64,000 bases of DNA from an uncultured Coriobacteriales bacterium (GTDB lineage: Bacteria; Actinomycetota; Coriobacteriia; Coriobacteriales; QAMH01). Below are positions 6,304 through 50,505 of the stretch, piece after piece. How positions within the stretch are numbered: position 1 is the first letter of the stretch; every line of letters begins with the position of its first letter. A model generated the notes under the pieces. The model had not been told where the DNA came from. It saw only the letters and a program-made list of their open reading frames with translations, and made no database searches. A program made the translations under genes and the position numbers. The DNA is taken from positions 42,090 through 106,089 of the forward strand of contig CAKUES010000001.1 in the NCBI GenBank assembly GCA_934646835.1. Direction: 5' to 3'.

Positions 6304-7086
6304 CTAGAAAACCGGCGCGCACATGCGCATGGGCTCGTTGTGGCTGTCCATGAACTCGACGATCTTGACGCCCACGCCGTAGGCGGCCCTCATGTTCTTC
6401 TCCGTGATGATCCGCGTCGCTGGGCCAAACTGCATGGGCGCGTCGCGCTGCAGCAAGACGACGTTGGACTTGCACATGAAGGCGTGGTCGGGACTGTGCG
6501 TGGTCATGACGACGGCATAGCCCTTGGCGGCCAGGTCACGTACCTTGGAGATAACGCGCATGGCGTTGCCGTAGTCGAGCGCGGCGGTGGGCTCGTCGAG
6601 CACGAGCAGGCGAGGCTGCTGGCACAGGGCGCGGGCGATCATCACCAGCTGCAGCTCGCCGCCGGAGATGTCCGTGTAGACCTTGTCGCGCAGGTGGTAG
6701 ACGCCCATGTCGTTCATGGCGTTTTCTGCGATGTTGTAATCCTCCGCACTCGGCTGGCCGGCAAGTCCCATTTTGTTGACGCGGCCGAGCAACACGACGT
6801 CTTTAACCTGGTATGGAAAAGGCGGCGTGTGGGCCTGGCTCACGTAGGCCATGGTGTCTGCAAGGCGCTTGGGGCTCCATTTGGAGATATCGTCGCCGTC
6901 GACGGTGACCTTCCCGCCTTGGAGCGGGATTAAGCCGAGTATCGACTTGAACAGGGTCGACTTGCCTACGCCGTTGGGGCCGAGCATGCAGCAGACCTCG
7001 CCGCTCTCAACGCTGAAGTTCACGTAGCGCTGGACGGGCTTGCCCTTCTCGTAGCCGCAGGTCGCGTCTAAAACCTCGAGTTTCAT
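6304..7086 (-). CDS. ABC transporter ATP-binding protein (FepC/FecE/BtuD-like)
   Basis: Walker A GPNGVGKST, signature ISGGELQ, Walker B LLVLDEPTAALD. AAGGAAAGG lies before the ATG. Confidence 0.9.
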   Translation of the reverse strand: MKLEVLDATCGYEKGKPVQRYVNFSVESGEVCCMLGPNGVGKSTLFKSILGLIPLQGGKVTVDGDDISKWSPKRLADTMAYVSQAHTPPFPYQVKDVVLLGRVNKMGLAGQPSAEDYNIAENAMNDMGVYHLRDKVYTDISGGELQLVMIARALCQQPRLLVLDEPTAALDYGNAMRVISKVRDLAAKGYAVVMTTHSPDHAFMCKSNVVLLQRDAPMQFGPATRIITEKNMRAAYGVGVKIVEFMDSHNEPMRMCAPVF

Positions 7087-7098: not shown

Positions 7099-7839
7099 TT
7101 AGCAGCAGCCGCAAGAGCAGCTGGAGCCACTGTCCTTAGCGCCCGCGTCGACCGCAGCGGCTTTGGGCTCCGCGGGGCGAGCGGTGCTCTGGTCGTACTT
7201 CTCGCGCAGGAAGCCGCGGATGTTGTCCGGCATAACGTACTCGTCGTATGCGGGCTTCTCGTGCGTGAAGACGACCTCGAGGAGGCGCTTGACGATATAG
7301 GCCACGGGCGGGACCTCGTAGAGCTTGCCGTTGAAGTCGAACTGGCGGCAGAAGACATCGTAGCTGGACAGGGTGCGGCAGCAGTCGCATTCGTTCTCGA
7401 TGACCTCGGGACAGATGTCGACGCCGTTGACGCGCACGGTGGGGCTGCTCAAGAACTCGAAGCGGTCTGCCAGGTACTCGTTCTCGATCTCCACCTTGTT
7501 CATGACGATGTTGTAGCCGGCCATGTCCATGATGGGGCGCACCTGCTCGACGGCGGCAGCCACGCGCGCATCTGTACCCTGGCAACGGTCGCAAACGCTC
7601 TGGTCGAGGTAGAGGTAGTCGACGATGACGACCTCCTTGCGGCCGAGGTTGGGGTCGTCTTGCGTGGCATCGGGGTCACAGCAGCCGTTGGACTCGCCGC
7701 TGCCGCAGCAGCAGTCGGAGTCATCACCGCAGCAGCAGCTCTCCTTGGCCTCGGAGTGCTTCGAGCCACCACAGCAGCAGCTCTCCTCCTTCTCCTTCTT
7801 GGTCTCACCAGAGCAGCAGCAGTCGTTATTCTTCGTCAT
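7099..7839 (-). CDS. poly-cysteine protein with DUF2703-like (thioredoxin-like) core
   Basis: The N-terminus reads CCCSG..CCCGG..CCCGDDSDCCCGSGESNGCC and the C-terminus CSCGCC. The core VVIVDYLYLDQSVCDRCQGT...SSPTVRVNGVDI resembles DUF2703 as I recall it. The ATG at 7839 (GGGAGG 8 nt upstream) is preferred over the TTG at 7845. Confidence 0.7.
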   Translation of the reverse strand: MTKNNDCCCSGETKKEKEESCCCGGSKHSEAKESCCCGDDSDCCCGSGESNGCCDPDATQDDPNLGRKEVVIVDYLYLDQSVCDRCQGTDARVAAAVEQVRPIMDMAGYNIVMNKVEIENEYLADRFEFLSSPTVRVNGVDICPEVIENECDCCRTLSSYDVFCRQFDFNGKLYEVPPVAYIVKRLLEVVFTHEKPAYDEYVMPDNIRGFLREKYDQSTARPAEPKAAAVDAGAKDSGSSCSCGCC

Positions 7840-7939
7840 ACTCAATACCTCCCATTTTCAGACGGGCATGTGCCCGTCACCACAAACAGTGCAAGTAGCC
7901 AACAGGGCCAGCATGTTGCCAGGCCCTTGCAAGGCAGAA

Positions 7940-18176: not shown

Positions 18177-18647
18177 GTAATCCATCCTTTCTTGAGGCGC
18201 GCTCTCTTGATTCGCGCCTCCCCTCGCCCCTCCTTAGGAGCGTTTTGCAAATCGCCAGGGCTTGCCTGGCGCGCCGGCCTCCGGTCAAAGCTCTGCTTGA
18301 TGCTCGGCTTTCTCGGATAACAGACGGGTGCCAATAGACACCAACCTGAAAATAAGCTGCAGCGCATCTAGTGTCAATTGCCAATAGTCGCACCTGTCGT
18401 ATATCATTGAGCAATCAAAACCGCACTACATCCGCAGCTACCTGCATTTGGACACGCGCAAGTAGCTGATATATATCTTATAAGTGCTTTAGAGACTTAT
18501 TCTCATTTCGATAATCGTCCACTCGTTATGCAGGGCGAACGGTTAAGGTGGTAGCAAGCAGAGATCGAGGGGCGTCCACCCCATCGAAGATGCCCGCAAT
18601 CCACTTGCACGAGTCAAGGCTGACAAGAAAGAAAGGGGGAGTTTTCC

Positions 18648-18989
18648 ATGAGCGAGAAATGCTGCATTGGCGACGGCAGCCCCACGGAGGAACTCACCTC
18701 GTTTGACGTCAACCCTGCATCCGCAGACCAAATGGCCGCCCTCTTCAAGGCGCTTGGCGACAAGCGCCGCCTCGAGATCATGGAGATCGTCGCCGATGAA
18801 GGCGACGCCTGCGCCTGCGCGCTGCTCGACGAGCTCGAGATCAGCCCCTCCACCCTGTCGCACCACACCCGCATCCTCACCCAAGCCGGCCTGCTCAACT
18901 GCTACCGTAAGGGCAAGTGGGCCCACTACCTCGTCAACGAGTCCGGCGTCGAGGCCGCCTGCGCGCTCTTGGGACGCCTGGCCAAATAG
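18648..18989 (+). CDS. arsR: ArsR/SmtB-family metalloregulator
   Basis: HTH region LGDKRRLEIMEIV...DACACALLDELEISPSTLSHHTRILTQAGLL with a C-x-C in the position of the ELCVCDL site, plus an N-terminal CC. AAGGGGGAG lies before the ATG. Confidence 0.85.
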   Translation: MSEKCCIGDGSPTEELTSFDVNPASADQMAALFKALGDKRRLEIMEIVADEGDACACALLDELEISPSTLSHHTRILTQAGLLNCYRKGKWAHYLVNESGVEAACALLGRLAK

Positions 18990-19007
18990 AGCGTCAAGTA
19001 TCGAACC

Positions 19008-21425
19008 ATGACCACCCATCCATCTGCATGCCAAGGCTGCTCGGCCTGCTGCGCCGTCCTCGTCGAAGAAAGCGACGGTGTGATAACGGCCGTGAAGGGC
19101 AGCCCCGCCTCCCCCGCCACAGGCGGCGCAGTCTGCCCCGCACTGCAGATCACCTTGCAGCAGCTTGCCGACCCCGACCGCGTGACGACGCCGCTGCTGC
19201 GCACCAATCCCGTCAAGAAGCGCGGTGAAAACCCCAGATTCAAGCCTGTGAGCTGGGACCTTGCGCTCGACCTGATTGCCGAGCGCATGCTCGAGCTGCG
19301 CCGCGAAGGCAAAGGCGAGCGCTTGGTCGTGAGTCGCGGGCGTTGCACGGGTATCTCGAACCTGCTCTTCAAGGCACTGCCGGACATCTTCGGCACGCCC
19401 AACCGCATCACGCACGACGGCATCTGCGCGGAAGCCGAGAAGCTCGCCTGCGGCAGCATGGACGGCATCTGGGATTACCGCGACTTCGACTTTGCCAACG
19501 CGAAATGCATCGTCTTGTGGGGCGCAGACCCACTTGTCTCCAACCGCTTCAAATCCATCGCCAACAAGCTACTTCCCAAGCTCGCAGAAGACGTGCGCGT
19601 CTTCGCCGTCGATCCCCATCTCTCCTACACCGCCACGCGCCTGGGCACTGACTGCTGGGTGCCCATCATCCCCGGCACCGACGGCGCGCTGGCGCTCGCA
19701 ATGGCCCACGTCATCCTGATCGAGGGCCTGTGGAGCAAGGACTACGTCGGCGATTTTGCCGACGGGTGTAACCGCTTCGAGCCGGGCGGCGAGGTCGACC
19801 CCGCTTGTTTTGAGGAGCGCGGCACGCTCGGGCTGGTCGACTGGTGGAACAGCGAGCTGCGCTGTCGTACGCCACAGTGGGCGGCACCGCTTTGCGGCGT
19901 GTCAGTCAGCCGCATCGTCGAGATGGCGCGTGTCCTTGCCGCAGCCGGGAGCCGCAGCATCTCCTGGATTTCCCCCGGCGTCACCATGACGGCGCGTGGT
20001 CTTGCGAGCGGCATGGCCTGCCACGCCCTCAACGCCCTCATGGGCTCGATCGACAGCGCTGGCGGCGTAAGGCGCCTACCCCTGCTGGGCTGCGCGCCAT
20101 GGCCCTCGACCGAGCCGTACCAAGACACCGAGGCACATCGCACAAACGCCTGCGAGCCCGTCGACCAGCGCTGCCACCGGGGCCTCATGGCTGCTAAGGA
20201 CGGCGGCATCCACGCAAACGCACTCACCGACAGGCTGGCCGACGCCATCTTGAGCGACGAGCCCTACCCCGTCGAGATGATGATCGGCTATTGGAACAAC
20301 TTCGCGTTCTCCTGCAGCGATACGCAGCGCTGGGAGGAGGCGCTGGCAAAGCTGCCGTTCTTCGTCCACGTGACCACCAATATCTCGGAGACCTCATGGT
20401 TTGCCGACCTCGTCTTGCCGGCAAAGAGCCACCTCTACGAGAGCTGGGGCTACGCCGTGAGCCGTATGCAGGGTCATAGCTGCGTCTGCCTGCAGACCCC
20501 CGCCGTCGACGCGCCGGGCGAGGCGCGCGCAGACGAGAGCGAGTTTCCCTTCATGCTCGCTCAAAAGCTCGCGGAGAAGGGATTCCCTGCACTGCTCGAC
20601 TACTACCGAGATTGCTTCCCGGAGGTGCTGACGGGTAAGGTGCCGAGCAACGGCACCGAGCTCGGCCGCAACGCCGTGCAGCAGATCACGCGCCCCCTGT
20701 GGGAGGCCGCAGGCGGTTGGGAGTGCTTCTTGAGCAGCGGCGTTGCCGAGGGCATCGGCGCCAAAGCCCCGCTGCGAGCAGCGGGAGAGATCACGGAGCT
20801 TCCCACTCCCAGCGGGCGCTTCGAGTTTCGCAGCTCTGTCATCGCGCGCATGCTCGCGGAGTACGCGACGCCCCACGGCATCAGCCAGCAGCAGGCCGTG
20901 TCAGAGCTTGGTTACGAGTGCAGCCCGCAGCTGCTTGCCCTACCGCATTGGGAGGCGCCGGCACGTGTTGGCGATGCTGCCAACTACCCGCTGGTGTTCA
21001 GCCAACACCGCGCCTACGCGAGCCTCGAGGGGCGCTCTGCGAACACGGAGCTCTTCCAGAGGATGAAGGGTATGGACCCCGGCGACGAGGCCTGGGGCGA
21101 CGTGCTCAAGGTCCATCCCGCAGACCTCGCGAGGCTGGGTATCGAGGATGGGGCGATGGCGCGTCTGGTGTCTCCCATCGGCAGCGCTGCCATCAAAGTC
21201 CGCGCATGGGAGGGCGTGCTGCCCGGCGTCGTCTCCAAATGCTACGGGCAGGGGCATTGGGCGTACGGGCACATTGCGGCTGCCGACTTCGAGGAAAGCA
21301 TCCCCCGCGGTGTCAACGCCAACGAGCTGATTCCCGCTGTCTACGAGGGAATCAGCGGCGCTACCGCACGTCATGGCGGCGTCATGCGCGTACGCCTCGA
21401 GCAGTTGGACGACACACTGTCGTGA
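19008..21425 (+). CDS. molybdopterin (bis-MGD) oxidoreductase, ArrA/Psr-type, with no Tat signal (predicted cytoplasmic)
   Basis: N-terminal FeS motif CQGCSACC...C, Mo-ligand block HDGICAE, and the conserved blocks IIPGTDGALALAMAHVIL and GQGHWAYGHIAA. It is a clear paralog of 42676..45267 but starts MTTHPSACQGC without an RR leader. Confidence 0.8.
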   Translation: MTTHPSACQGCSACCAVLVEESDGVITAVKGSPASPATGGAVCPALQITLQQLADPDRVTTPLLRTNPVKKRGENPRFKPVSWDLALDLIAERMLELRREGKGERLVVSRGRCTGISNLLFKALPDIFGTPNRITHDGICAEAEKLACGSMDGIWDYRDFDFANAKCIVLWGADPLVSNRFKSIANKLLPKLAEDVRVFAVDPHLSYTATRLGTDCWVPIIPGTDGALALAMAHVILIEGLWSKDYVGDFADGCNRFEPGGEVDPACFEERGTLGLVDWWNSELRCRTPQWAAPLCGVSVSRIVEMARVLAAAGSRSISWISPGVTMTARGLASGMACHALNALMGSIDSAGGVRRLPLLGCAPWPSTEPYQDTEAHRTNACEPVDQRCHRGLMAAKDGGIHANALTDRLADAILSDEPYPVEMMIGYWNNFAFSCSDTQRWEEALAKLPFFVHVTTNISETSWFADLVLPAKSHLYESWGYAVSRMQGHSCVCLQTPAVDAPGEARADESEFPFMLAQKLAEKGFPALLDYYRDCFPEVLTGKVPSNGTELGRNAVQQITRPLWEAAGGWECFLSSGVAEGIGAKAPLRAAGEITELPTPSGRFEFRSSVIARMLAEYATPHGISQQQAVSELGYECSPQLLALPHWEAPARVGDAANYPLVFSQHRAYASLEGRSANTELFQRMKGMDPGDEAWGDVLKVHPADLARLGIEDGAMARLVSPIGSAAIKVRAWEGVLPGVVSKCYGQGHWAYGHIAAADFEESIPRGVNANELIPAVYEGISGATARHGGVMRVRLEQLDDTLS

Positions 21426-21437
21426 GTTTGCACGCCC

Positions 21438-21476
21438 GCTGCAACCAGATGGCGCCGACTCCGTCTGGCGCCTACG
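21438..21476 (+). repeat. family B REP-like hairpin (single copy)
   Basis: gctgcaaccagatGGCGCCgactccgtctGGCGCCtacg. Confidence 0.8.
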
Positions 21477-21527: not shown

Positions 21528-21613
21528 GCAGTCAACACTCCCGTCAGGCTGATTTGTTGACCAAGCCATGCTTGGCATGGTCAACAAATCAGCCTGACGG
21601 GAGTGTTGACTGC
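21528..21613. repeat. 86-nt near-perfect hairpin
   Basis: The 36-nt arm gcagtcaacactcccgtcaggctgatttgttgacca (21528-21563) is perfectly complementary to 21578-21613. The inner gcca-tgct-tggc extends the stem. Confidence 0.85.
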
Positions 21614-21700: not shown

Positions 21701-21806
21701 ATGATGTCTTATATTGGTTCCAGCAAGTCAGTCCTCCCTCATACAATCAACTGGCTTCGCAAGAGAGCAGTTGCAGCTGTTCTCAAGCAAACTCCTTTGG
21801 ATTGTT

Positions 21807-21850
21807 TGGCTCGAACGGGAACAGGCCCCCGTTCGAGCCAAAAGTCTTTT
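21807..21850 (+). terminator. terminator-like hairpin inside the 5' leader of the AhpD-like/arsS operon (candidate attenuator)
   Basis: tggctcgaacggg-aacaggcc-cccgttcgagcca (13-bp stem) followed by aaagtctttt. A second short GC stem plus T5 lies at 21874-21893, and a third hairpin at 21908-21924 sits just before the RBS. Confidence 0.4.
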
Positions 21851-21944: not shown

Positions 21945-22283
21945 ATGGAAACCTATTACAACCCCGCTGACCTCGCCAAGTTCTCTGCAGAGGGCGTCGG
22001 CTCCGCCGCCCCCGAGCTCTGGGAGAAGTACATGGGCTACTACGGCTCCGTCTTCCAGGACGGCGCCCTGACCGCCCGCGAGAAGGCCCTCATCGCCGTC
22101 GCTGTGGCAGCTGCCGTCCAGTGCCCCTACTGCATCGACGCCTACACCAACACCCTGCTGCAGGACGGCTGCGACGCAGACGAAATCATGGAAGCCATCC
22201 ATGTCGCCAACGCGATCCGCGGCGGCGCATCCCTCGTCCACGGCGTCCAGGCCGTCAACATCATCGAGAAGAACGAGCTGTAA
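21945..22283 (+). CDS. carboxymuconolactone decarboxylase (AhpD-like) family protein, arsenosugar-biosynthesis-associated type
   Basis: AhpD-like CxxC (AAVQCPYCIDAYT), about 110 aa, immediately upstream of ArsS as in the TIGR04169/TIGR04167 pairing I recall. Confidence 0.8.
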   Translation: METYYNPADLAKFSAEGVGSAAPELWEKYMGYYGSVFQDGALTAREKALIAVAVAAAVQCPYCIDAYTNTLLQDGCDADEIMEAIHVANAIRGGASLVHGVQAVNIIEKNEL

Positions 22284-22372: not shown

Positions 22373-23401
22373 ATGTCCCAGTTAATCGATAGGATTGCAA
22401 ACGATCCTGAGCTCAAGGCGGCGATGGCGGCGTTTCCGCCCTTTGTCGAGCGCGTACCGGAGAAGTACCGCGCAAGCCTCGACGAGCTCGACGTGTTGCA
22501 GGTCAACGTCACGCGCCAGTGCAACATCGTCTGCAAGCACTGCCACCTCGACTGTCATCCCAATCGCACGGAGCACATGTCGCGCGAGCACCTCGAGCAG
22601 TGCCTCGACGTCTTCGAGCAGCGCGGCTTCAAGACGCTCGACATCACCGGCGGCGCTCCGGAGATGAACCCGGACTTCGAGTGGTTCATCCGCGAGGCGG
22701 GCTGTCGCAACATCCCCATGATCGTGCGCAGCAACCTCATCATCCACGAGGAACCCGGTTACGAGCACTACCCCGCGCTCTTCGCGCAGCTCGGCATCAA
22801 CGTCGTGGCGTCGCTTCCCCACTACCGCGAGCGCAACATGGAGAAGCAGCGCGGCGCGGGCACCTTCATGCCCGTCATCCACGGCCTGCAGCGCCTCAAC
22901 GCGCTCGGCTACGGCAAGGGCGAAGCGGGCAAGAACGCCGCAGGTCAAAAGCTCCAGCTTGACCTTGTCTTCAATCCGTCCGGCATCAACATGCCACCCG
23001 ATCAGGCGACCATGGAGGCCGAGTACAAGCGCCGTCTCAAGGCAGACTTCGACATCGAATTCGACAACCTGTTCACCTTCACCAATGCACCGGGCGGTCG
23101 CTTTGCCATGGCGCTCATGAAGGCCGGCAAGCTCGACATGTACATGAACAAGCTCATCGGCGCGTTCAACCCGAACACGGTCGAGGGCATGATGTGCCGC
23201 ATGGAGTACTCCGTCGCCCCCGACGGCCATCTGTATGACTGCGACTTCAACCAGGCGGTGGCGCTGCCTTGTGCCGACGGCCGCATGATCGGCGACCTGC
23301 TCGACCCCAACCAGCCGCTCAAGCGCCGCATCTGCTTTGGCAACCACTGCTACTCCTGCACGGCCGGGGCAGGCAGCAGTTGAGGCGGCAGCACAGCGTA
23401 G
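22373..23401 (+). CDS. arsS: radical SAM (seleno)protein ArsS, arsenosugar-type; in-frame TGA at 23381-23383 read as selenocysteine
   Basis: Radical SAM motif CNIVCKHC and Cys-rich C-terminal domain CFGNHCYSCTAGAGSS. The track ORF stops at the TGA, but the frame continues GGC GGC AGC ACA GCG TAG, giving ...GSSUGGSTA. A hairpin follows. The family assignment is firm; the Sec extension is less so. Confidence 0.75.
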
Positions 23402-29648: not shown

Positions 29649-29667
29649 AATCTTGTCCTCTCTCCTC

Positions 29668-36290: not shown

Positions 36291-37085
36291 TTATGCTGCA
36301 TCCGCCGCCTTGTGCATCTTGTCGACGACCTGGGTGTAGAACAGGCCAGCAAGGACGCCGCCGACGAGCGGGGCAACGACGTAAACGACCCACACGCCCC
36401 AGTCGGCAAGGCCGGAGGTAGCCAGGACGCCGCTGGCGACGAGCCACATGACGCGCGGCAGGATGTCGCGGGCGGGATTCAGGCCGGCGTCGGTCATGGG
36501 GCCGGCGGTGCAGATGATCAGCGTAACGGTCAGGCCGATGAACAGCAGGAAGATGACGTCACCGGGCTTGCCGGCATTGGCGTCCTCGGTCATGGAGAAG
36601 ATGACGAAGACGAGGACGAAGACGCCGATACCCTCGGCAAGCGAGCCCTCGAGCACGCCTATGGAGAGCGCCGAGCTGTTGGTGATCTGCTCGCACCAGA
36701 TGGAGGCCGCGGTATCGGGACCGGCAACGCTTGCCCAAGAGGAGTCGAGGCCGTTGACGGAGGCAGCGAAGTAGATCCACAGGACCAACGCTGCGATAAA
36801 GGCTCCGATGAACTGGCCGATGAGGTATGGCAGGACCTTCTTGCCCTCGAGGCGGCCGGTGACGGCCATGGCCACCGTGACGGCCGAGTTGAAGTGAGCG
36901 CAGCTCAGGTTGCGCGTGCAGTAGATCGCAATGGCGATGGCGAGACCCCACACCATACCGACCTGGAAGGGACCGGTGTGAGCCCCGGCCAGCGTTGCGG
37001 TGGCGACGGCGCCGATGCCAAAGAAGCGCATGATGAATGTGCCGATGACCTCGCCCATCACCTCTCGAGCAGTGGCGTTACCCAT
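36291..37085 (-). CDS. MIP-family channel (aquaglyceroporin-like), first NPA box changed to NSA
   Basis: SCAHFNSAVTVAM and DAGLNPARDILPR. AAGGAGGAG lies upstream of the ATG. Divergent from arsM. Confidence 0.9.
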   Translation of the reverse strand: MGNATAREVMGEVIGTFIMRFFGIGAVATATLAGAHTGPFQVGMVWGLAIAIAIYCTRNLSCAHFNSAVTVAMAVTGRLEGKKVLPYLIGQFIGAFIAALVLWIYFAASVNGLDSSWASVAGPDTAASIWCEQITNSSALSIGVLEGSLAEGIGVFVLVFVIFSMTEDANAGKPGDVIFLLFIGLTVTLIICTAGPMTDAGLNPARDILPRVMWLVASGVLATSGLADWGVWVVYVVAPLVGGVLAGLFYTQVVDKMHKAADAA

Positions 37086-37325: not shown

Positions 37326-38372
37326 ATGAGCGATATCCGCGAGCAGGTCAAGGAGTACTACAGCAACCTGAAGTCCTCTGGCGACCTCAAGACCGAGGTC
37401 TGCACCTGTGGCAGCGCACCCAAGGACATCCGGGCCATCATCAACGAGCTGCCCACAGAGATCTGCGAGCGCTTCTACGGCTGTGGCAGCCCCATCCCGC
37501 CCATGCTCGAGGGCTGCACCGTGCTCGACCTGGGCTGCGGCACTGGTCGCGACGTGTTCGCCTGCTCCAAGCTCGTCGGTGAGACCGGCAAGGTCATCGG
37601 CGTCGATATGAACGAGGACCAGCTTGCTGTCGGCGAGAAGTACAAGGACGAGGTCGCCAAGGCCTTTGGCTACACGGCCAGCAACGTCGAGTTCAAGCGC
37701 GGCTACATCGAGGACCTCAAGAGCTTGGGCATCGAGGACAGCAGCATCGACGTCGTCATCTCCAACTGTGTCATCAACCTCTCCCCCTTCAAGGAAGCCG
37801 TGTTCTCGGAGATCTGGCGCGTTCTCACCTACGGCGGCGAGCTCTACTTCTCCGACGTTTTTGCCGACCGCCGCATGCCGGCGGAGCTCGCAGCCGACCC
37901 CGTGCTGCGCGGCGAGTGTATCTCCGGCGCGATGTACATCGAGGACTTCCGCCGCTTGATGCGCAAGATCGGTTGGGAGGACTTCCGTTACATGTCCACC
38001 CGCCGCTCCGTCATCGGCAACGACGAGATCGCCGAGAGGGTCAAGGACTTTACCTTCTTCTCCCACACGGTGCGCGCCTTCAAGATCCCCGACAAGATCG
38101 AGGACCTGTGCGAGCAGTACAACCAGGTCGCAACCTATCAGGGCACCATCCCCGGCATGAACCAGTTCTTCGATCTGGACGACCACCATCGCTTCTTCAC
38201 CGATCAGCCGCTTGAGGTCTGCGGCAACTCTTGCGCGATGGTCGAGGACACGCGCTACGGCAAGGCCTTCAAGATCGAGGGCAACCGCGATGTTCACTAC
38301 GGACCCTTCCCCGGTTGCGGCAACATCCCCTACTCCGCCAACGGCGAGGATGCTGGCGGCTGCTGCTGCTAG
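37326..38372 (+). CDS. arsM: arsenite S-adenosylmethionine methyltransferase
   Basis: SAM motif VLDLGCGTGRD. All four ArsM cysteine positions are present (N-terminal CTCG, YGCGSP, ISNCVINL, GECISGA). C-terminal tail GGCCC. GAAGGAG lies before the ATG. Confidence 0.9.
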   Translation: MSDIREQVKEYYSNLKSSGDLKTEVCTCGSAPKDIRAIINELPTEICERFYGCGSPIPPMLEGCTVLDLGCGTGRDVFACSKLVGETGKVIGVDMNEDQLAVGEKYKDEVAKAFGYTASNVEFKRGYIEDLKSLGIEDSSIDVVISNCVINLSPFKEAVFSEIWRVLTYGGELYFSDVFADRRMPAELAADPVLRGECISGAMYIEDFRRLMRKIGWEDFRYMSTRRSVIGNDEIAERVKDFTFFSHTVRAFKIPDKIEDLCEQYNQVATYQGTIPGMNQFFDLDDHHRFFTDQPLEVCGNSCAMVEDTRYGKAFKIEGNRDVHYGPFPGCGNIPYSANGEDAGGCCC

Positions 38373-39008: not shown

Positions 39009-39557
39009 CTACTCACCCGGGAAGTAGGGGCACTGCCCGCGCAGGCACTGGGCATTGCCGCCACAGAAGGTGCAGGTCACGCGCTCAGGGCGCACCATGC
39101 GCACGTTGAAGTGCTCGTTGAGAAAATCAATCGCGTCGAGGGCAGCGGTATAGCTCGAGCGACTGCAGCAACGCGGCAGCTCGGCCTCGGCGATATGCCC
39201 TTGCACCGTCGCCGTTAGGCGCTGGCACTGCCCCCAGGGCTCGCGCGTCATGGGCGTCGCGCCGTTGATAACGCTGAGCGCCTGGCCCACGCCCACCGCC
39301 ACACCGCAGCAGCACCACGACTCGCACGAGCAACCGGGGACCTGCCCAGCTCGCGCGGCGTATTCCTTGAGGGCAGCGCCCTTGGTCATCGTGCCGCCGT
39401 TGATCTTGCCACCCGCATTGAAGAAGGCCGTGATGACGGCCGCACCCGCAGCCATATGGCGCATGGGGTCCTCGGCGCAGCAGCCCGCGCCAGCAAGCAG
39501 ACCCTCCATGACATCGATCGCATCGCACGAGCGATTGGTAATGCAGCTCTTGAACAT
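39009..39557 (-). CDS. Cys-rich protein, short paralog of 47723..48442 (possibly DUF5714-like)
   Basis: Shares GGKINGG, PGCSCESWCCCG..VGQALSVINGATPM, RCC..S..TAALDAIDFLNEHFNV and VTCTFCGGNAQCLRGQCPYFP with the long paralog. It lacks the Zn-ribbon N-terminus. Start at MFKSC (39557). Confidence 0.6.
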   Translation of the reverse strand: MFKSCITNRSCDAIDVMEGLLAGAGCCAEDPMRHMAAGAAVITAFFNAGGKINGGTMTKGAALKEYAARAGQVPGCSCESWCCCGVAVGVGQALSVINGATPMTREPWGQCQRLTATVQGHIAEAELPRCCSRSSYTAALDAIDFLNEHFNVRMVRPERVTCTFCGGNAQCLRGQCPYFPGE

Positions 39558-39667
39558 CTCTTCCTCTCTACGCGGACACCCGCGCACCCTCATCAAACGC
39601 AAAGACGCGCTCGCCAGCATTACAGCCAGCGAGCGCGCAAAAGCTCGAAACCTACTATCCCTTGCAG

Positions 39668-40606
39668 CTAGCAGCAGCTGCTGGTCACGACCTCGCCGTT
39701 ATCGGCAGTGTAAGGGATGTTGCCGCAGCCGGGATAGGGGCCGTAGTGCACGTTGCGGTTGCCGTCGATCTTAAAGTACTTGCCCACGCGCGTGTCCTGG
39801 ACCATGGAGCAGGAGTTGCCGCAAACCTCGAGCGGCTCGTCCTTGACAAAGCGATGATGATCGTCGAGGTCGTAGTACTCGTCACAGCCCTCGATGCCGC
39901 CCAGGTAGGTGGCAACCTGGCCGTACTGCTCGCACAAGTCCTCGATCTTGTCGGGGATCTTGTAGGCGCGCACGGTGCGGATAAAGAAGGTGATGCCGGC
40001 AAAATCGGGGTCGTCAGTGGAGGTGGCGACGGTACGTGTGTGACGGAAGTCTGCCCAACCGGCGGCGGTCATCTGACGGCGGAAGTCCTCGATGTACATT
40101 GCGGAGCCGGTGCCGGCAGCGCGCTTGACGGGGCAGGACTTGATGGAGGCGGTCATGCGACGATCGGCGAAGACGTCGGTTGCGTAGAGCTCGCCACCAT
40201 AAGCCAGCACACGCCAAACCTCGTTGAGGACAGCCTGGGTGTTGATCGGCGCAGAGATGCCGCAGTTGGAGATGACGAGGTCAGTCTCGGAGTCGACGAT
40301 CGCCTCGAGGTTGGTGAGCTCGCTCACGATGAACTGGCAGTTAGCCGGGGCGTGCTTGCGCGCGACGGCGATCTTGTCTGCATCCGGATCAACGCCGATG
40401 ACCATGCCGTCTTCGCCAACGAGCTTGGAGGCGATGTAGGCGTCTCGACCGGTGCCACAGCCCAGGACGAGGACGCGGATGCCCTCCATCGCAGGCGGGA
40501 AGGGGTAACCGGTCGTGACCGTGCCAGCGATAACCTCCTCGGGGATCTCCTTCAAGATCTCCGCGATCTTCTCCGACGGGGTGCCGGGAATGCGAATCTC
40601 GCTCAT
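39668..40606 (-). CDS. ArsM-like SAM methyltransferase paralog lacking three of the four As(III)-binding cysteine positions
   Basis: VLVLGCGTGRD. The C-terminal half is almost collinear with ArsM (KIPDKIEDLCEQY..VATY...LEVCGNSC.MV.DTR.GK.FKI.GNR.VHYGP.PGCGNIPY). YGCG is replaced by GYPFPP, GECISGA by AAGTGSA, and there is no N-terminal Cys. The tail is SSCC. Confidence 0.8.
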   Translation of the reverse strand: MSEIRIPGTPSEKIAEILKEIPEEVIAGTVTTGYPFPPAMEGIRVLVLGCGTGRDAYIASKLVGEDGMVIGVDPDADKIAVARKHAPANCQFIVSELTNLEAIVDSETDLVISNCGISAPINTQAVLNEVWRVLAYGGELYATDVFADRRMTASIKSCPVKRAAGTGSAMYIEDFRRQMTAAGWADFRHTRTVATSTDDPDFAGITFFIRTVRAYKIPDKIEDLCEQYGQVATYLGGIEGCDEYYDLDDHHRFVKDEPLEVCGNSCSMVQDTRVGKYFKIDGNRNVHYGPYPGCGNIPYTADNGEVVTSSCC

Positions 40607-40681: not shown

Positions 40682-41320
40682 TTACCTGAACGCGCTCAAA
40701 ATGCCGCCGAACATGGCATCGAGCTGGTCTTTCGACAGCTCATTGAGCGTCCAGGCACCGTTGGTTCGCGTCAGGTTCAAGTCGATGGTCTTGCTCTTGG
40801 ACTTGCTGCTCAGGGCAGAGACCTCGTCTTCGACCTTGGCGATCAAGGCCTTGGTCATCTCCGCGTCCGCGTCGCTGCCGTCGCTCACAGCCTTGATGAA
40901 GCCCTCACCAAAACCCTCCATGCCGTCCTTGTACGCGCTGCCAAAGTCGTAGGCCTTGAAGGTCACGTTGACCTTGGCGGTGTTGTTGTCGATGGCTGTG
41001 CTGTTGATGGTGTAGTCGAACGAGCACAGCTTCTTGGAGACATCGGCGATAAACTCCTGCTGGCTATCGCTCAAGCTATCAGTGTCAGGCGACATGGCGA
41101 CGTCATCCTTTGCGGACAGCATGCCCACGACGTCCTTGCTCTTGCTGTCGAGCTTGCCGCCGGTGTACACCGTAGCAAGCGTCGTACCGTCCATCGTCTT
41201 GATGGAGGTCAGGGCCGTATCGGCAACCTCCGCCGGCTTCATCTCGCCGCAACCGGCCAGGCTCAGCGCCATAATCGACGCTACACCCAGGGCTGCTAGC
41301 GGCCTCATGAACTTACGCAT
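40682..41320 (-). CDS. lipoprotein of unknown function
   Basis: Signal and lipobox MRKFMRPLAALGVASIMALSLAGC. The ATG overlaps the TorD-like stop by 8 nt. Confidence 0.65.
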   Translation of the reverse strand: MRKFMRPLAALGVASIMALSLAGCGEMKPAEVADTALTSIKTMDGTTLATVYTGGKLDSKSKDVVGMLSAKDDVAMSPDTDSLSDSQQEFIADVSKKLCSFDYTINSTAIDNNTAKVNVTFKAYDFGSAYKDGMEGFGEGFIKAVSDGSDADAEMTKALIAKVEDEVSALSSKSKSKTIDLNLTRTNGAWTLNELSKDQLDAMFGGILSAFR

Positions 41321-41966
41321 CCAATACCTCCTCGCTCAAAACACCGACGAGAAGACGCATCAGCGCAGGGTAGAGCGGAAACTCTGCATAGTCGTCGACC
41401 AGCTGCTTGAACTCCGGCAGCCAACGCAGGATATAGAGCGCGACGAAGTCGCGATAGGCCTCGACGAACTCCTCCTGGCCGCGCTGCTCGTGGGTGGCGG
41501 CGAGCCGTGCCGCAAAGGCGAGCAGGTAGCGGATGTGATCGGCCGGCTCGTGCTCGCTGGCAGACAGCTCCAGCCCAAACTGCTCGTAGAGCTGGGCCAC
41601 CTCCATGGTCGTCGGGCCGTAGACCTGGTGCTCACCGTCGACGTAGTACGACGCGTAGGGCGGCGCGTACATTTTGAAGCTGCCGATAAAGAGCCTCGTG
41701 TACTCGAGCTGGGCGGGCTCGGCGTCTTGCGGCTGCTCGACGCTGGGCGCCGCAAAGGCCTGCGCTGCATCGAGGACAGCGGTGATTTGCTCGGCATATG
41801 CCGAGCACGCAGCATCTGCCACACACAAGCGCAGGGGCGCAAGCGCCGCCTGCAGGCCCAACGCGGGATAGGTCAGGGCCGCAGACAGCGCTGCGAGCAG
41901 CGAGGACGGGGCGACGGGGGCGATGGGGGCGATGTTCCCAGAGTTTTCCTGCATGTCCCCTACCAC
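41313..41966 (-). CDS. TorD/DmsD-family molybdoenzyme maturation chaperone (ArrD-like)
   Basis: EYTRLFIG...PPYASYY...EPADHIRYLLAFAA, the typical TorD-family pattern. The start is either GTG 41966 (overlapping the upstream TAG) or ATG 41954. Confidence 0.75.
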   Translation of the reverse strand: MVGDMQENSGNIAPIAPVAPSSLLAALSAALTYPALGLQAALAPLRLCVADAACSAYAEQITAVLDAAQAFAAPSVEQPQDAEPAQLEYTRLFIGSFKMYAPPYASYYVDGEHQVYGPTTMEVAQLYEQFGLELSASEHEPADHIRYLLAFAARLAATHEQRGQEEFVEAYRDFVALYILRWLPEFKQLVDDYAEFPLYPALMRLLVGVLSEEVLDA

Positions 41967-42673
41967 GTCTTCTTGAACTCGCGGATGTAGTAGACGGCGG
42001 GCTTGGTGCCCTTCTCCGGCTTGAGGACCGTGGGCTCAAAGGACTGGGTGAGCTCGTAGATCTCGCCGTAGATGTCTGCCTCGTTGCCAAAGATGCGCGC
42101 ACCTGCGGGGCAGGCGTCGACGCAATAGGGCTTGTCGCCGGAGTAGACCAGGTGCTTGCACATCTGGCACTTGAGCGGGCCGCCCTTCCTGGTGTTGGGC
42201 AGGTTGTACGCGTCGAGCGCCGGGTCATGGGAGGGGTACTTGGCTCCGATGAACTCCTGCATCTCCTCAGGCGTGCCCGTGCAGTCCTTGATGAGCTGCT
42301 TGACGGAGCTCACCTGATCAGCGCTGGACTCGCCGTCGCAGCGCGTGATGGCGTGGTAAGGGCAGGCCGCAGCGCACAGGCCGCAGGCGACGCACTTGCT
42401 CGGGTCGTGCACGGTGAGGCCGTACTCGTCCTTGTGCATGGCATGCGTGGGGCACGCCTTGACGCAGGCGGCGTCGGTGCAGTGGTTGCACATGACCGGC
42501 CTGTAGGAGTACTCGACGTCCGGGAAGGTGCCCGTAGTCTCGTTGACGTGATAGGTCAAAAACGTGCCCTCGGGGACCTCGTTATGGGTTTTGCACGCGA
42601 TCTCGCATGCACCGCAGCCGACGCAGCGGTGCAGGTCGATGACCATGGCGTAGCGGGTCTTCTTGTCTGCCAT
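41960..42673 (-). CDS. arrB: 4Fe-4S ferredoxin-type subunit (putative ArrB)
   Basis: Four Cys groups (CVGCGACEIAC, CNHCTDAACVKAC, CVACGLCAAAC, CQMC...C). GAGGAG lies before the ATG, 2 nt after the large-subunit stop. Confidence 0.8.
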   Translation of the reverse strand: MADKKTRYAMVIDLHRCVGCGACEIACKTHNEVPEGTFLTYHVNETTGTFPDVEYSYRPVMCNHCTDAACVKACPTHAMHKDEYGLTVHDPSKCVACGLCAAACPYHAITRCDGESSADQVSSVKQLIKDCTGTPEEMQEFIGAKYPSHDPALDAYNLPNTRKGGPLKCQMCKHLVYSGDKPYCVDACPAGARIFGNEADIYGEIYELTQSFEPTVLKPEKGTKPAVYYIREFKKTW

Positions 42674-42675: not shown

Positions 42676-45267
42676 TTACTCCTCAACCTTCTCGATCTTC
42701 ACGCGGGCGAAACCGCCGTGGCGCGCGCTGTTGTTGGAGATGTGGTCGAAGACGCTCGGCAGGATCTCGTTGTTGTTGCCACCGCGCGGCTGGTGCTTGG
42801 CAAAGTCCTTGGCGGCGATGTGGCCGTATGCCCAGTGGCCCTGGCCGTAGCACTTGATGACGACACCCGGGCGCGTGCCCTCCCAACCCTTGGCATGGAC
42901 GGTGATGGAGCCCTGGACGGAGGTCACCTTGATGGTGTCGCCGTCCTTGAGGCCCAGCGCGGCCATGTCAACGGGGTTGATCTTCATGACGTCGTCCCAA
43001 GCCTCGTCGCCGGGGTCGACGTCCTTGAACTCCTGGTAGCCAACGCAGTTGGCGCTGCGGCCCTCGCGGTTGAGGCGGCTGCGGTGCTCCTCGAAGATAT
43101 AGGGGAACTCGCTCTCGTCGCCCAGGCGCACCGGCTCCTCGTAATGAGGAACGAAGGCGCGGCCGTCGCGAGCCTCGTAGCCCATCCACTCCATAACCTG
43201 GTCGGTGCCGACGCGGTACATGTCGGCCTTCTTCTCCAAGTCGCGCTTGAGGGTCTCGGAGTAGAACTCGAACTTGCCGGTCTCGGTGCCAAAGTTGCCC
43301 CAGTGCTTCTTGAAGCCCGCGGGCTTGGAGTTGAAGACGCCCTTTGAGGCGAAGTTGCGCCAGCTCTTGAGGCTGTCGCCCTGGCCGGCCTTCTCTGCGT
43401 CGCCGTTCCAGAAGGGCTCGGTGACGAGCTTGACGGCGATTTCTGCGAACTTGGCGGCGTCGGTGGGACGATTGCCGGTCTCGGGGTCGATGAAGGCCTG
43501 CGAGTAGTACTTGTAGATGTCGCCAAAGCCGCGCTCGTCGAGCTTCTTGGCGAGCTCCCAGGCGATCTCCGTCTCGTCGGTGAGGGTGTCCCACAGCGGC
43601 TTGATAATCGGCTGCTGAACGCTCATGTAACTGATGAGGCCCTGGTAGTTCTTCTGGCAGCCCCAGCGCTCGAAGAGGTGATGCTTGGCCGGAAGGACGA
43701 TGTCGGCGAACATCGCGGACTCGCTCACATGCGTGGTGATGCAGGCGTAGAAGGGAACGCTGGCCAGTGCCTTCTCCCAGCGCTGAGCGCCGGTGGCGGA
43801 GTAGGCGAAGTTGCACCAGCAGCTGATGAGCACCTTGGTGTCGTACCAGCCTGCATCCTCGACGTCGTGGTTGATGACGTCGGCGAGTCGGTTGGTGATG
43901 ACCATATCGTTGATCTTGCCGCCGTGCGCGCCGAGGAACTCCTTCTCGACGCGGCCGTCGATCTTGGGCTTCTTGGCGTTGGAGCGGGCGTTGCCGTTGC
44001 GCCAGCGATTGTGGTCGGGCAGGTGGCCGGCCGTCATGGACGCCGTGCGCATCGTGCCGCCCTCGTGCTCGGTGGAGCCGACGAGGCCGTTGAGGGCGTT
44101 AGCAGCCATGGCGCCGTAGACGCCGCGCGGCTGGTTGGAGACGCCGGGGCTCATCCAGGAGATGGAGCTGGCGCCGTATTTGCCAAACTGCGTCGCCACG
44201 TCGATGATCGTCTCCGCGGGGATGCCGGTGATCTCTGCGGCCCACTCGGGGGTCTTATCCTTGAGCTCGATGTTCCACCAGCGCACCAGGCCGTAGCCCT
44301 TGTTGTACTCGAACTTCTCCTCGTCGACCATCTCGCCGGCGACGAAGAGGTTGATGCGGGTGTTGGCGTCGTCGGAGATGTCGCGGTTCCAGACACCGGT
44401 CTTGAAATCGCCGACGAACTCCTTATTCCACAGGCCCTTGGTGAGGATGACGTGCGCCATGGCGCAGGCCAGCGCACCGTCGGTGCCGGGGATGATGGGG
44501 AGCCACTTGTCGGACTTGGCGGCGGTGGCGCTCAGGCGCGGGTCGACGACGTAGATCTTCGCGCCGTCCATGACGTCGCCCCACTTGGAGATGACAGAGG
44601 AGACCTGGCGGTTGGAGGCGATGGGGTCAGTCGACCACATGATGATGCACTTGGCGTTGGCAAGGTCGTAGTCGCGGTAGTTGAAGAAGCCCTCGGTGTA
44701 GTAGGCGCCCGCCTTCTCGACCTCTGCGCACAGCGTGGAGTGGCCGTAGTAGTTGGGCGTGCCAAAGAGCACGGGAAACTTGCTGTGGAGGACGTCGCCC
44801 ACAGCAGTGGAGCGGCCCTTCAGCATCATGAGCTTGTGGGTTTCCTTGTTCTCCTGCAGCTCCATGAGCTTGTCGGCGATCGTGCCAAGCGCCTCGTCCC
44901 AGGTAATGGGCACGAAGCCGGGGTCGATGTCGCGGCCCTTCTCAGGGTTGGTGCGCTTCATCGGCGTCTTGATGCGATCGGGATCGTAGAGCTGCTGAAT
45001 CGCCAGATGAGGACGGGGGCAGATGTTTCCGCCGGTGGCCTTGCAGTTCCAGTTGCCCTTGATGCGCAGGACGCGACCGCCCTGCGTGTAGACCTTAACC
45101 GGGCAGAAGGAAGTGCAGCCCTGGCAGGTGGACGCGGTCCACTTGCCTTTCTCGTTCTTCTTATGCGACTCGTCTGCAACGGCTGTGAAGGGGTTGGCAG
45201 CGCCGACACCTGCAGCCGCTAGTCCCAAGGCGCTAGCCTTGAGAAACGAGCGTCTATTCAGATTCAA
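42676..45267 (-). CDS. arrA: Tat-exported molybdopterin oxidoreductase, putative respiratory arsenate reductase large subunit (ArrA-type)
   Basis: Twin-arginine leader MNLNRRSFLKASALGLAAAGVGA. The blocks STCQGCTSFC, LQQLYDPDR, HSTLCAE and GQGHWAYGHIAA match my recollection of ArrA sequences. TTG start with AGGAAG 5 nt upstream. Confidence 0.8.
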   Translation of the reverse strand: MNLNRRSFLKASALGLAAAGVGAANPFTAVADESHKKNEKGKWTASTCQGCTSFCPVKVYTQGGRVLRIKGNWNCKATGGNICPRPHLAIQQLYDPDRIKTPMKRTNPEKGRDIDPGFVPITWDEALGTIADKLMELQENKETHKLMMLKGRSTAVGDVLHSKFPVLFGTPNYYGHSTLCAEVEKAGAYYTEGFFNYRDYDLANAKCIIMWSTDPIASNRQVSSVISKWGDVMDGAKIYVVDPRLSATAAKSDKWLPIIPGTDGALACAMAHVILTKGLWNKEFVGDFKTGVWNRDISDDANTRINLFVAGEMVDEEKFEYNKGYGLVRWWNIELKDKTPEWAAEITGIPAETIIDVATQFGKYGASSISWMSPGVSNQPRGVYGAMAANALNGLVGSTEHEGGTMRTASMTAGHLPDHNRWRNGNARSNAKKPKIDGRVEKEFLGAHGGKINDMVITNRLADVINHDVEDAGWYDTKVLISCWCNFAYSATGAQRWEKALASVPFYACITTHVSESAMFADIVLPAKHHLFERWGCQKNYQGLISYMSVQQPIIKPLWDTLTDETEIAWELAKKLDERGFGDIYKYYSQAFIDPETGNRPTDAAKFAEIAVKLVTEPFWNGDAEKAGQGDSLKSWRNFASKGVFNSKPAGFKKHWGNFGTETGKFEFYSETLKRDLEKKADMYRVGTDQVMEWMGYEARDGRAFVPHYEEPVRLGDESEFPYIFEEHRSRLNREGRSANCVGYQEFKDVDPGDEAWDDVMKINPVDMAALGLKDGDTIKVTSVQGSITVHAKGWEGTRPGVVIKCYGQGHWAYGHIAAKDFAKHQPRGGNNNEILPSVFDHISNNSARHGGFARVKIEKVEE

Positions 45268-45505: not shown

Positions 45506-45575
45506 TTCATGACTGGCGGAAGTCACCCCTGTGCTCACAGGGAATCGCCACCTCGTGAGAAAGAGTCCTACTCAA

Positions 45576-46373
45576 ATGAAAATCGCAAAGACCCTCGTCG
45601 GTGAGATCATCGGCACCTTCATGATGTGCTTTCTGGGCATCGGCGCTGTCGCGACCGCGACCCTGTACGGCGCACTCACCGGCCCTGGCCAGATCGGCCT
45701 CGTCTGGGGTATCGCAATCGCGCTGGGCATCTTCATGACCCGCAGCCTGTCTGACGCGCACTTCAACCCTGCCGTTACCCTGGCCATGTGCATCTCCGGC
45801 CGCAACAAGTGGTCCGAGCTGCCCGTCTACTTCATCGGCCAGTGCATCGGCGCCTTCCTCGGCGCTGGCGCCCTGTGGATCCTCTTCGCCGACTCCGTCG
45901 CCAAGAACCTGGCAAACGCCGGCCTGACCATGTCCACCAACTCCATCGGCTCTGCCGCCACCATCTGGGCCGAGGTCTTCCCCAACAGCTCCCAGGCCAT
46001 GATCTCCATGCAGGGTGCAATGTTCGCCGAGGGCTTCGCCGTCTTCATCCTGTGCCTGGTCATCCTCGTCGTGACCGACAAGAACAACGAGGGCGCCCCC
46101 ACCGCAGCACTCGCACCGCTGTTCATCGGCCTCACCGTCACCGTTCTGATCAACGTCGTCGGCCCTCTGACCGACGCTGGTCTCAACCCCGCCCGTGACC
46201 TCATGCCCCGCGTGGTCGCGATGATGGTTGGCTTCAAGACCGTTGCCTTTGGCACCAACGCCTTCAACGTCTGGATGGTCTACACCGTCGCGCCGTTCAT
46301 CGGCGGTGCTGTTGCAGCCCTGCTGTATCGCTTTGGCCTCACTCGCATGTTTGAGGACAAGAACGAGGCCTAA
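45576..46373 (+). CDS. MIP-family channel (aquaglyceroporin-like)
   Basis: SDAHFNPAVTLAM and DAGLNPARDLMPR. The start is taken at MKIAKTLVGEIIG (45576). Confidence 0.9.
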   Translation: MKIAKTLVGEIIGTFMMCFLGIGAVATATLYGALTGPGQIGLVWGIAIALGIFMTRSLSDAHFNPAVTLAMCISGRNKWSELPVYFIGQCIGAFLGAGALWILFADSVAKNLANAGLTMSTNSIGSAATIWAEVFPNSSQAMISMQGAMFAEGFAVFILCLVILVVTDKNNEGAPTAALAPLFIGLTVTVLINVVGPLTDAGLNPARDLMPRVVAMMVGFKTVAFGTNAFNVWMVYTVAPFIGGAVAALLYRFGLTRMFEDKNEA

Positions 46374-48442: not shown

Positions 48443-48520
48443 GCCAAACCCTCCCCTTCTCTCGATGCAGCCGCAAACGCGGCGACTTACCAACAGTTTC
48501 CAGCTCTCCTGTGACGTGTC

Positions 48521-49573: not shown

Positions 49574-49581
49574 ACCCCCCC

Positions 49582-50361: not shown

Positions 50362-50505
50362 GTGAGTCCTTCCAGACACCGCTGATAACAATCGCCCTGC
50401 CTGTGCTGCCTGGGAAAACTTCCTGACAGCAGAACCGCAGGGCAAAAACAGCCTGCCGAAAAAGGGCAAAAACTCCTCTTTCGGCAGGCGTCTTTGGCAA
50501 ACCTC

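Follow-up and report, generated by a model that had tools for sequence, protein, structure and literature searches.

What would a bacterium do with a respiratory-type arsenate reductase that carries no signal for export? To our knowledge, ArrA is regarded as an enzyme that is always exported, depends on ArrB and serves respiration. The question is raised by a 64,000-nucleotide stretch of an uncultured Coriobacteriales genome (contig CAKUES010000001.1, positions 42,090 to 106,089; hereafter the window), in which an ArrA-derived molybdenum enzyme, the target of this analysis, is encoded directly downstream of arsR and lacks a twin-arginine (Tat) leader. Judging from sequence and gene context, we give slightly better than even credence to the view that the target reduces a pentavalent arsenical in the cytoplasm, as part of an uptake and organification module.

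An ArrA fold without Tat leader, ArrB or TorD

The target kept the ArrA fold, the FS0 iron–sulfur site, the molybdenum (Mo) cysteine ligand and four of six substrate-pocket residues, and had no Tat leader, ArrB or TorD. Its Pfam domains (Molybdop_Fe4S4, Molybdopterin and Molydop_binding, each above cutoff) placed it in the Mo/W-bis(pyranopterin guanine dinucleotide) (bisPGD), or dimethyl sulfoxide (DMSO) reductase, superfamily. The closest solved structure was ArrA of Shewanella sp. ANA-3 (6CZ7; E = 3e-197, full length), and the AlphaFold (AF2) model of the target (predicted local distance difference test score 90.9) superposed on it with a TM score of 0.95 and a root-mean-square deviation of 2.1 Å. 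The next best structural match was the polysulfide reductase PsrA (TM score 0.74), and the match to the PhsA model scored 186 bits (cutoff 694), placing the target outside the PsrA/PhsA family. The NCBIfam ArrA model (NF041714) matched best by far, at 731 bits, below its equivalog cutoff of 1,600 bits; the exported ArrA-type paralog encoded in the same window (950 bits) likewise fell under this cutoff.

The target and this paralog were collinear over 825 columns (41% identity, E = 0). The earlier note on this DNA, made from the letters and open reading frames (ORFs) alone, had described the 805-residue protein, its N-terminus MTTHPSACQGC and this collinearity correctly; the paralog lies on the minus strand, and all four shared blocks that the note quoted were present in both proteins. 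One of these, H..(I/L)CAE, does keep the Cys ligand as claimed, and it also hides the clade-specific replacement described below. The note's view that the paralog is Tat-exported was borne out by an RR leader and, following it, ArrB-like and TorD-like genes.

At the cofactor sites the target was canonical. Its FS0 ligands C8, C11, C15 and C43 follow the pattern C-x2-C-x3-C-x27-C, which is the ArrA family motif (PMC2500031) and has the same spacing as Cys61/64/68/96 of ANA-3 ArrA (PMC10654088). The FeS motif is therefore not altered, contrary to the earlier note; Cys14 is merely an additional residue, standing where other ArrAs have Phe or Trp. Cys140 aligned with the Mo-ligand Cys193 of ANA-3 and was invariant in the clade of leaderless relatives, and all cofactor ligands were conserved across that clade, which spans 45–90% identity.

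The substrate pocket was mapped through the alignment to 6CZ7 and is given in ANA-3 ArrA numbers; we take Arg165 to be one of its residues. Arg165, His189, Lys198 and Tyr210 were retained in the target (as Arg112, His136, Lys145 and Tyr157), whereas Tyr166 was replaced by Cys113, giving the motif RGRC, and Ser190 by Asp137. The pocket roles of Tyr166, His189, Ser190, Lys198 and Tyr210 are those given in a summary of the 6CZ7 paper (PMC10654088).

A Tat leader is impossible for the target, because the arsR stop codon (TAG, 18987-18989) is in frame and precedes the ATG by six codons, without an alternative start codon in between. The Cys motif begins at residue 8. An ortholog that is 90% identical (locus L097) has the same start, MTTHPSACQGC, despite different upstream DNA (155 bp), and in-frame stops were found close upstream in seven of the nine ortholog loci checked. 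In the other two (L012 and L013) no stop occurred within 50 codons upstream, yet neither showed an RR or hydrophobic leader. An upstream start or RR leader for the target was thus ruled out, by the in-frame stop and by the upstream regions of the orthologs, and the earlier note's statement that the protein has no twin-arginine leader holds.

The absence of a leader extended to a whole clade. Among the 120 closest database proteins, 97 were leaderless, with the Cys motif 5–18 residues from the N-terminus, and leader-bearing proteins appeared only below ~46% identity to the target. Named members of the clade were all Coriobacteriia (Adlercreutzia sp. ZJ473, an isolate whose protein is P0011, and metagenome-assembled genomes of Coriobacteriales and Eggerthellaceae). 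The clade is narrow, since only two full-length representatives of it remained when the library was clustered at 50% identity. In neighbour-joining (rather than maximum-likelihood) trees, bootstrap support was 100 for the leaderless clade, 99 for its sister relationship to a Tat-bearing Coriobacteriia ArrA group that includes the window paralog, and 100 for the placement of both within ArrA, nested in canonical RGRY-type sequences. Judged by these trees, the leaderless proteins are a monophyletic, Coriobacteriia-restricted clade nested inside ArrA. The earlier note had named an upstream RR start and a grouping away from ArrA as grounds for abandoning its reading; no such start was found, and in tree placement (bootstrap 100) as in fold (TM score 0.95) the target belonged with ArrA.

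The clade also had a signature of its own. Next to the Mo-ligand Cys, H-S was changed to H-D (Ser190 to Asp) in 95 of 97 leaderless proteins and in none of 23 leader-bearing ones, and only nine columns of the alignment, this one included, strictly told the two groups apart; the resulting motif is H-D-x-I-C. Position 166 was Ser, Ala or Cys in the clade. One leaderless homolog of 916 residues (P0017) carried a fused rhodanese domain (PF00581), a fold common to Acr2/Cdc25-type arsenate reductases and to sulfur- and selenium-transferases.

The gene appears to be maintained. Compared with the L097 ortholog, the ratio of nonsynonymous to synonymous substitution rates (dN/dS) was 0.14 at a dS of 0.38; the gene is under purifying selection. 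The protein was encoded on at least 23 contigs, and those with the window's own protein came from human gut samples, for example from the Hadza.

Gene neighbourhoods in relatives and in the window

To place the target among its relatives, loci were annotated against a panel of reference proteins, and Pfam-annotated contigs were added. A scan of a genome collection with the single target protein gave three loci; a metagenome scan gave mostly environmental Tat-type ArrA loci, which served as a control set, and six leaderless loci from one lineage. At the 74 leader-bearing loci, ArrA was nearly always followed by ArrB, and most of these loci had TorD as well; the few without ArrB all lay on short or end-cut contigs. 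Neither ArrB nor TorD was found in any of the ~19 leaderless loci, which represent nine lineages, so that the adjacent arrB that marks ArrA was absent throughout. In the window, no FeS or membrane subunit adjoined the target, as the earlier note had said, nor did ArrB or TorD, and none of its neighbours had a signal peptide, ArsR, AhpD-like protein and ArsS being cytoplasmic protein types. The lack of a leader, of a TorD-type chaperone, of ArrB and of a Tat-bearing neighbour, together with a clade that is leaderless throughout, makes the cytoplasmic location already proposed in that note the best inference.

In place of respiratory partners, the relatives showed a recurrent set of other genes (Table 1). 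A PhnD-type binding protein, an ATP-binding cassette (ABC) ATPase, a permease and a DUF2703 protein were adjacent and co-stranded in four lineages, and L012 adds a fifth in which DUF2703 is reversed; an operon-like run of the reductase with the PhnD-type ABC importer was thus seen in five lineages. DUF2703 was not seen on two short contigs of the P0036 type. ArsS directly followed the enzyme in two lineages (L011 and L100) and followed an AhpD-like gene in the window and L097, and ArsM-like genes flanked the enzyme in L017 and L099. The arsenic link is thereby stronger than the earlier note had claimed from the neighbouring arsR, a call that itself held up (NF033788, above cutoff). The note's assumption that the substrate is already inside the cell is doubtful, because an importer in an operon-like run with the reductase suggests active uptake of the substrate.

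The importer binding proteins of the relatives combined twin-arginine lipoprotein signals with an S-T-S-G oxyanion motif. They were weakly similar to the PtxB and PhnD structures and had no match to AioX or ArrX; their ligand is not readable from sequence. The first helix of the DUF2703 proteins opened with an invariant C-x-R-C. The proteins also shared an SSPT-R-NG loop and three more invariant Cys residues, and their disordered tails were rich in CCC and CCCC runs. Their modelled core matched only thioredoxin and protein disulfide isomerase domains, and these weakly (best E = 4e-3). Elsewhere, DUF2703 domains were fused to ArsD and a thioredoxin-like domain, to DUF5714, or to 2x[4Fe-4S] ferredoxin domains. 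Such features would suit a protein that uses thiols to carry a trivalent metalloid or to act as its redox partner.

Two further genes recurred beside the reductase. A small BspA-type leucine-rich repeat (LRR) protein without signal peptide was encoded immediately upstream of it in three lineages (L012:5101-5700, L013:6393-7013, L101:1358-2104, and L017-L022), and LRR genes also lay near the reductase in L011. A putative redox-active protein of the C_GCAxxG_C_C type was encoded between the DUF2703 gene and the reductase in two lineages (L012:6630-6995, L101:914-1348) and is a possible electron-transfer or thiol partner of the reductase.

In the window itself, ArsR has a CC pair at its N-terminus, and a C-A-C motif precedes its helix-turn-helix (HTH); the L097 ArsR is four residues longer and differs at the C-terminus. 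A terminator-like hairpin in the spacer downstream of the reductase suggests that arsR–reductase and ahpD–arsS are separate transcription units. The same spacer holds a palindrome that was an indel among strains, present in the window and L001 and missing in L004 and L097; in L004 an 84-bp gap replaces it, with GTCAAC at the junction. It could represent a small element of mobile or hairpin type; as a repeated element it was rejected, since it occurs only once within the window. At the target locus and in its relatives, Rfam showed no riboswitch or other RNA element besides one tRNA. In the comparison with L097, an otherwise close strain, DNA identity was 87–89% for the arsR–reductase segment (18646-21439), 98.6% for the 9.7 kb downstream and 93% for the 9.5 kb upstream. 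Given this lower identity and the higher G+C content of the reductase gene (~66%, flanks ~59%), the arsR–reductase cassette suggests allelic replacement or recombination.

Around the paralog, positions 34700-52000 form a dense arsenic-themed gene region. The NMT1/PhnD-like binding protein of its importer was 46% identical to the one flanking the DUF2703–importer–reductase locus L013. The window's DUF2703 protein shared 65–69% identity with its counterparts at the P0003 and P0004 loci, which are encoded directly upstream of the reductase. Outside this region, positions 28845-32355 (minus strand) encode a second, unrelated Mo-bisPGD enzyme of 895 residues, DmsA/BisC-like with an AhtL-like N-terminus, whose accompanying FeS subunit carries a fused carboxypeptidase-regulatory-like domain. 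The enzyme is similar to those of the catechol-dehydroxylase type in gut Coriobacteriia and is adjoined by two short-chain dehydrogenases/reductases, a major facilitator superfamily transporter and a glyoxalase-like gene. Flanking the arsenic region on the other side (51785-56320) are a HigB/HTH toxin–antitoxin pair, an aminotransferase/beta-eliminating-lyase-like gene, and a GCS2 carboxylate-amine ligase with a GATase gene.

Table 1. Features of the window, by position, followed by gene arrangements around the enzyme at leaderless loci, by protein and locus identifier
Feature	Position or locus	Strand	Details
ABC-transporter ATPase	6304..7086	-	adjoins DUF2703 gene; link to system uncertain
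DUF2703 / DF family protein	7099..7845	-	thioredoxin-like core, invariant C-x-R-C, Cys-rich disordered tails
ArsR/SmtB metalloregulator	18648..18989	+	113 aa; NF033788 76 bits, cutoff 55
Leaderless ArrA-derived Mo-bisPGD enzyme (target)	19008..21425	+	805 aa, intact ORF, N-terminus MTTHPSACQGC
Palindrome, ~86 bp	21528..21613		41-nt arms, 98% complementary; in the 519-bp reductase/AhpD-like spacer
Terminator-like hairpin	21805..21842	+	15-bp stem
AhpD/CMD-fold arsenosugar biosynthesis-associated peroxidase-like protein	21945..22283	+	112 aa, C-P-Y-C motif; TIGR04169 165 bits, cutoff 120
Radical-SAM ArsS	22373..23383	+	336 aa; TIGR04167 367 bits, cutoff 300; Pfam Radical_SAM and DUF3641
Major intrinsic protein (MIP) channel	36291..37085	-	one of two
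ArsM-like S-adenosylmethionine (SAM) methyltransferase	37326..38372	+	348 aa, C-terminal CCC; best NCBIfam match arsenite methyltransferases, 175 bits, cutoff 263
DUF5714 protein	39009..39620	-	one of two; weak match to metal-binding selenoprotein MbdU model
Second ArsM-like methyltransferase	39668..40606	-	312 aa; downstream of paralog operon
TorD/DmsD-type Tat proofreading chaperone of paralog	41313..41966	-	PF02613
ArrB-like 4x[4Fe-4S] subunit of paralog	41960..42673	-	NF041715 225 bits, best match; cutoff 450 not reached
Tat-exported ArrA-type paralog	42676..45267	-	863 aa; motifs KGRS and H-S; RR leader LNRRSFLKASALGLAAAG
MIP channel	45531..46373	+	one of two
IS200-type Y1 transposase	46856..47314	-	
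DUF5714 protein	47723..48493	-	one of two; weak match to MbdU model
ABC importer	48521..51648	-	Tat-lipoprotein NMT1/PhnD-like binding protein (50506..51648), ATPase and permease
P0001	window, L097		ArsR upstream; AhpD-like (TIGR04169) and ArsS (TIGR04167) downstream, both over cutoff
P0003	L008, L009, L014, L015		PhnD-type binding protein, ABC ATPase, permeases, DUF2703; same strand
P0004	L099		importer–DUF2703 run as in P0003; convergent ArsM-like fragment downstream
P0007	L010, L011		ArsS, 65 bp downstream of enzyme
P0008	L100		ArsS overlaps enzyme stop by 4 nt; second AhpD–ArsS pair nearby
P0009	L101		order DUF2703, C_GCAxxG_C_C protein, LRR protein, enzyme, PhnD-type importer
P0010	L016		no partner genes; no H-D signature
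P0011	L012		upstream PhnD-type importer and LRR protein; DUF2703 adjacent, opposite strand; GCAxxG protein
P0036-type	L013, L017-L022		DUF2703, PhnD-type importer, LRR protein, enzyme; ArsM-like gene upstream in L017

Proposed function and rival explanations

If the target reduces a pentavalent arsenical in the cytoplasm, a working sequence can be proposed. In relatives, the ABC system would import a pentavalent arsenic oxyanion. Oxygen-atom transfer at Mo, at a centre that is probably ArrA-like, would then reduce the As(V) species, with electrons reaching FS0 from a soluble carrier such as a ferredoxin- or flavodoxin-like donor instead of ArrB. The Cys-rich DUF2703 protein may hold the trivalent product and hand it over to ArsM and ArsS, where ArsS would act on dimethylated As(III), DMAs(III); its known reaction is the adenosylation of DMAs(III) to 5'-deoxy-5'-dimethylarsinoyl-adenosine (PMC13598754). 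Trivalent arsenic would in turn act through ArsR to switch on the arsR–reductase unit.

Regarding the substrate, we lean slightly to mono- and dimethylated As(V), MAs(V) and DMAs(V), over inorganic arsenate, giving them a little under half of the favoured explanation. The two-gene units of ArrA-type enzyme and ArsS without ArsM nearby, the phosphonate-type binding protein, the smaller residue at position 166 and the charge-reducing Asp190 point to methylated forms, whereas the retained Arg and Lys and the ArsM adjacency in other lineages point to inorganic arsenate. The bolder proposal is that the clade is the missing prokaryotic MAs(V)/DMAs(V) reductase and that, with the PhnD-type importer, the Cys-rich carrier, ArsM and ArsS, it forms a deliberate pathway by which human-gut Coriobacteriia take up dietary or host DMAs(V) and turn it into adenosyl- or sugar-type organoarsenicals. 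This we put forward as a tentative and, on balance, doubtful extension.

Several observations weigh against a cytoplasmic uptake and organification role. In the window, the 519-bp spacer with its terminator-like hairpin parts the reductase from ahpD–arsS, the DUF2703 gene lies 11 kb away on the other strand, the importer genes are also not adjacent to the target, and the ArsM-like proteins stay below their NCBIfam cutoffs. No Shine–Dalgarno sequence precedes the window copy; as its ATG is only 18 nt past the arsR stop, in one reading frame, its translation may be coupled to that of arsR. The lineage P0010 (L016) is leaderless with neither partner genes nor the H-D signature. As for the pocket, Ser at position 166 is shared by the exported sister group, which means that replacement of Tyr166 is not specific to the cytoplasmic clade, and the positive charges retained at the R165 and K198 equivalents suit inorganic arsenate as well as methylated forms.

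A plainer account would make the target a substitute for ArsC. Arsenate would leak in through phosphate transporters and be reduced for detoxification, and As(III) would exit through MIP channels or be methylated, with no dedicated uptake or biosynthesis. The position of the target 18 nt downstream of arsR and in the same orientation, as for arsC in classical ars operons, and the retained R165, H189, K198 and Y210 equivalents are consistent with this, as is the finding that among the annotated window genes no ArsC-, Acr3- or ArsB-type gene turned up and two MIP channels did. Plain detoxification is nevertheless unlikely: the conserved ABC importer that adjoins the reductase in five lineages fits poorly with such a role, the clade-specific change of Ser190 to Asp suggests changed chemistry or substrate, and the tight pairing of ArrA-type and ArsS genes points further. 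Alternatively, the substrate might not be an arsenical, and the target might reduce or convert some other imported compound, a tetrahedral oxyanion or an oxide. Examples would be antimonate, tellurate, selenate, selenite, an S- or N-oxide, or a compound resembling a phosphonate or phosphite; the neighbours with arsenic names would then reflect broad soft-metalloid handling. Such a role would suit a protein that scores far under the ArrA equivalog cutoff and has two altered pocket residues. It would also suit importer binding proteins that, besides their weak PtxB/PhnD likeness, touch a putative selenate-binding-protein model (E = 4e-6), and the DUF2703, DUF5714 and ArsS families include selenoproteins according to their NCBIfam names. 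However, five arsenic-linked families recur near the clade (ArsR, ArsS, AhpD-like TIGR04169, ArsM-like and, by domain fusion, ArsD), and the clade is nested within bona fide ArrA; we consider a non-arsenic substrate distinctly improbable.

The remaining explanations concern location, direction and function itself. AioA is exported via Tat on its signal-bearing partner AioB, and the target could reach the outside in the same manner and have a respiratory role, given that the PhnD-type binding proteins beside the reductase in relatives bear twin-arginine lipoprotein signals. These proteins are accompanied by an ATPase and permeases and are therefore ordinary importer components, no window neighbour of the target has a signal peptide, and ArrB and TorD are missing at every leaderless locus, which makes export of this kind very improbable. 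ArxA is an ArrA relative working in reverse, and detoxification through cytoplasmic oxidation of As(III) or MAs(III) would agree with an ArsR that responds to trivalent arsenic. This seems more improbable still: the target has RGRC rather than an XGRGWG-type motif, ArxA-like XGRG sequences fell outside the leaderless clade, a phosphonate- or oxyanion-type importer fits a pentavalent substrate, and it is hard to see which acceptor in the cytoplasm of a strict anaerobe would serve a couple near +135 mV. Least probable of all is that the target, as a duplicate of the respiratory enzyme, is non-functional and decaying, as the missing Shine–Dalgarno sequence, the lost partner genes and a strain divergence greater than in the flanks might suggest, since the 805-codon ORF is intact and was found on at least 23 contigs, the dN/dS ratio is low, the cofactor ligands are conserved clade-wide and the L097 ortholog has a good ribosome-binding site, a strong GGGGAG.

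Known systems and implications

Several known systems resemble the target in part. With ANA-3 ArrA it shares the fold, 39–41% full-length identity, FS0 spacing, Mo Cys and the R165, H189, K198 and Y210 equivalents; it differs in lacking the leader, ArrB and TorD, in the changes of Tyr166 to Cys and Ser190 to Asp, and in neighbours that comprise an importer, DUF2703, ArsS and ArsM instead of respiratory partners. The exported Coriobacteriia ArrA group (the paralog and its Adlercreutzia and Gordonibacter homologs) is the immediate sister, from the same host lineage and with a KGRS-type replacement of Tyr166, but keeps the leader, ArrB, TorD and Ser190. The Tat signal of ArrA has been called "fully conserved", and ArrA was defined operationally by arrB adjacency (PMC2500031). 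On its sequence features the leaderless clade should not be filed as ArrA, though descended from it, because the Tat signal and the adjacent arrB are absent, the score stays below the equivalog cutoff and two pocket residues differ.

Other enzymes offer parallels of reaction or architecture. NarB, NasA and NasC are leaderless single catalytic subunits with an N-terminal [4Fe-4S] cluster that take electrons from a soluble carrier and reduce an imported oxyanion. The target parallels this architecture, but is distant in sequence (NasC model 68 bits, cutoff 1,100), belongs to another clade and has another active site. ArsC would share with it the proposed cytoplasmic reduction of As(V) to As(III) under ArsR control, but ArsC proteins are small thiol enzymes, coupled to thioredoxin or glutaredoxin, without metal cofactor and unrelated to an 805-residue Mo/FeS protein (PMC2500031). 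If the substrate is a methylated arsenical, the reaction would be that of mammalian GSTO1, an unrelated glutathione transferase that serves as MMA(V)/DMA(V) reductase (PMC12608789). A literature search, whose coverage excluded most subscription journals, gave no account of a leaderless ArrA clade or of ArrA in gut Coriobacteriia, and for a prokaryotic methylated-As(V) reductase only a report of ArsH as an "organoarsenic reductase" surfaced.

The leaderless clade contradicts the textbook picture of ArrA. The arrA gene is used as a marker for arsenate respiration; if a cytoplasmic, partner-less ArrA branch with a changed active site exists as proposed, arrA-like reads in gut metagenomes would not indicate respiration. 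To the ArsC and Acr2 enzymes the branch would likewise add a third type of arsenic reductase in the cytoplasm, one that depends on metal, and proteins with the H-D-x-I-C signature are a concrete candidate for a bacterial MAs(V)/DMAs(V) reductase. The recurring importer suggests purposeful arsenic uptake by some gut bacteria, which bears on how the microbiome may affect arsenic speciation and host toxicity.

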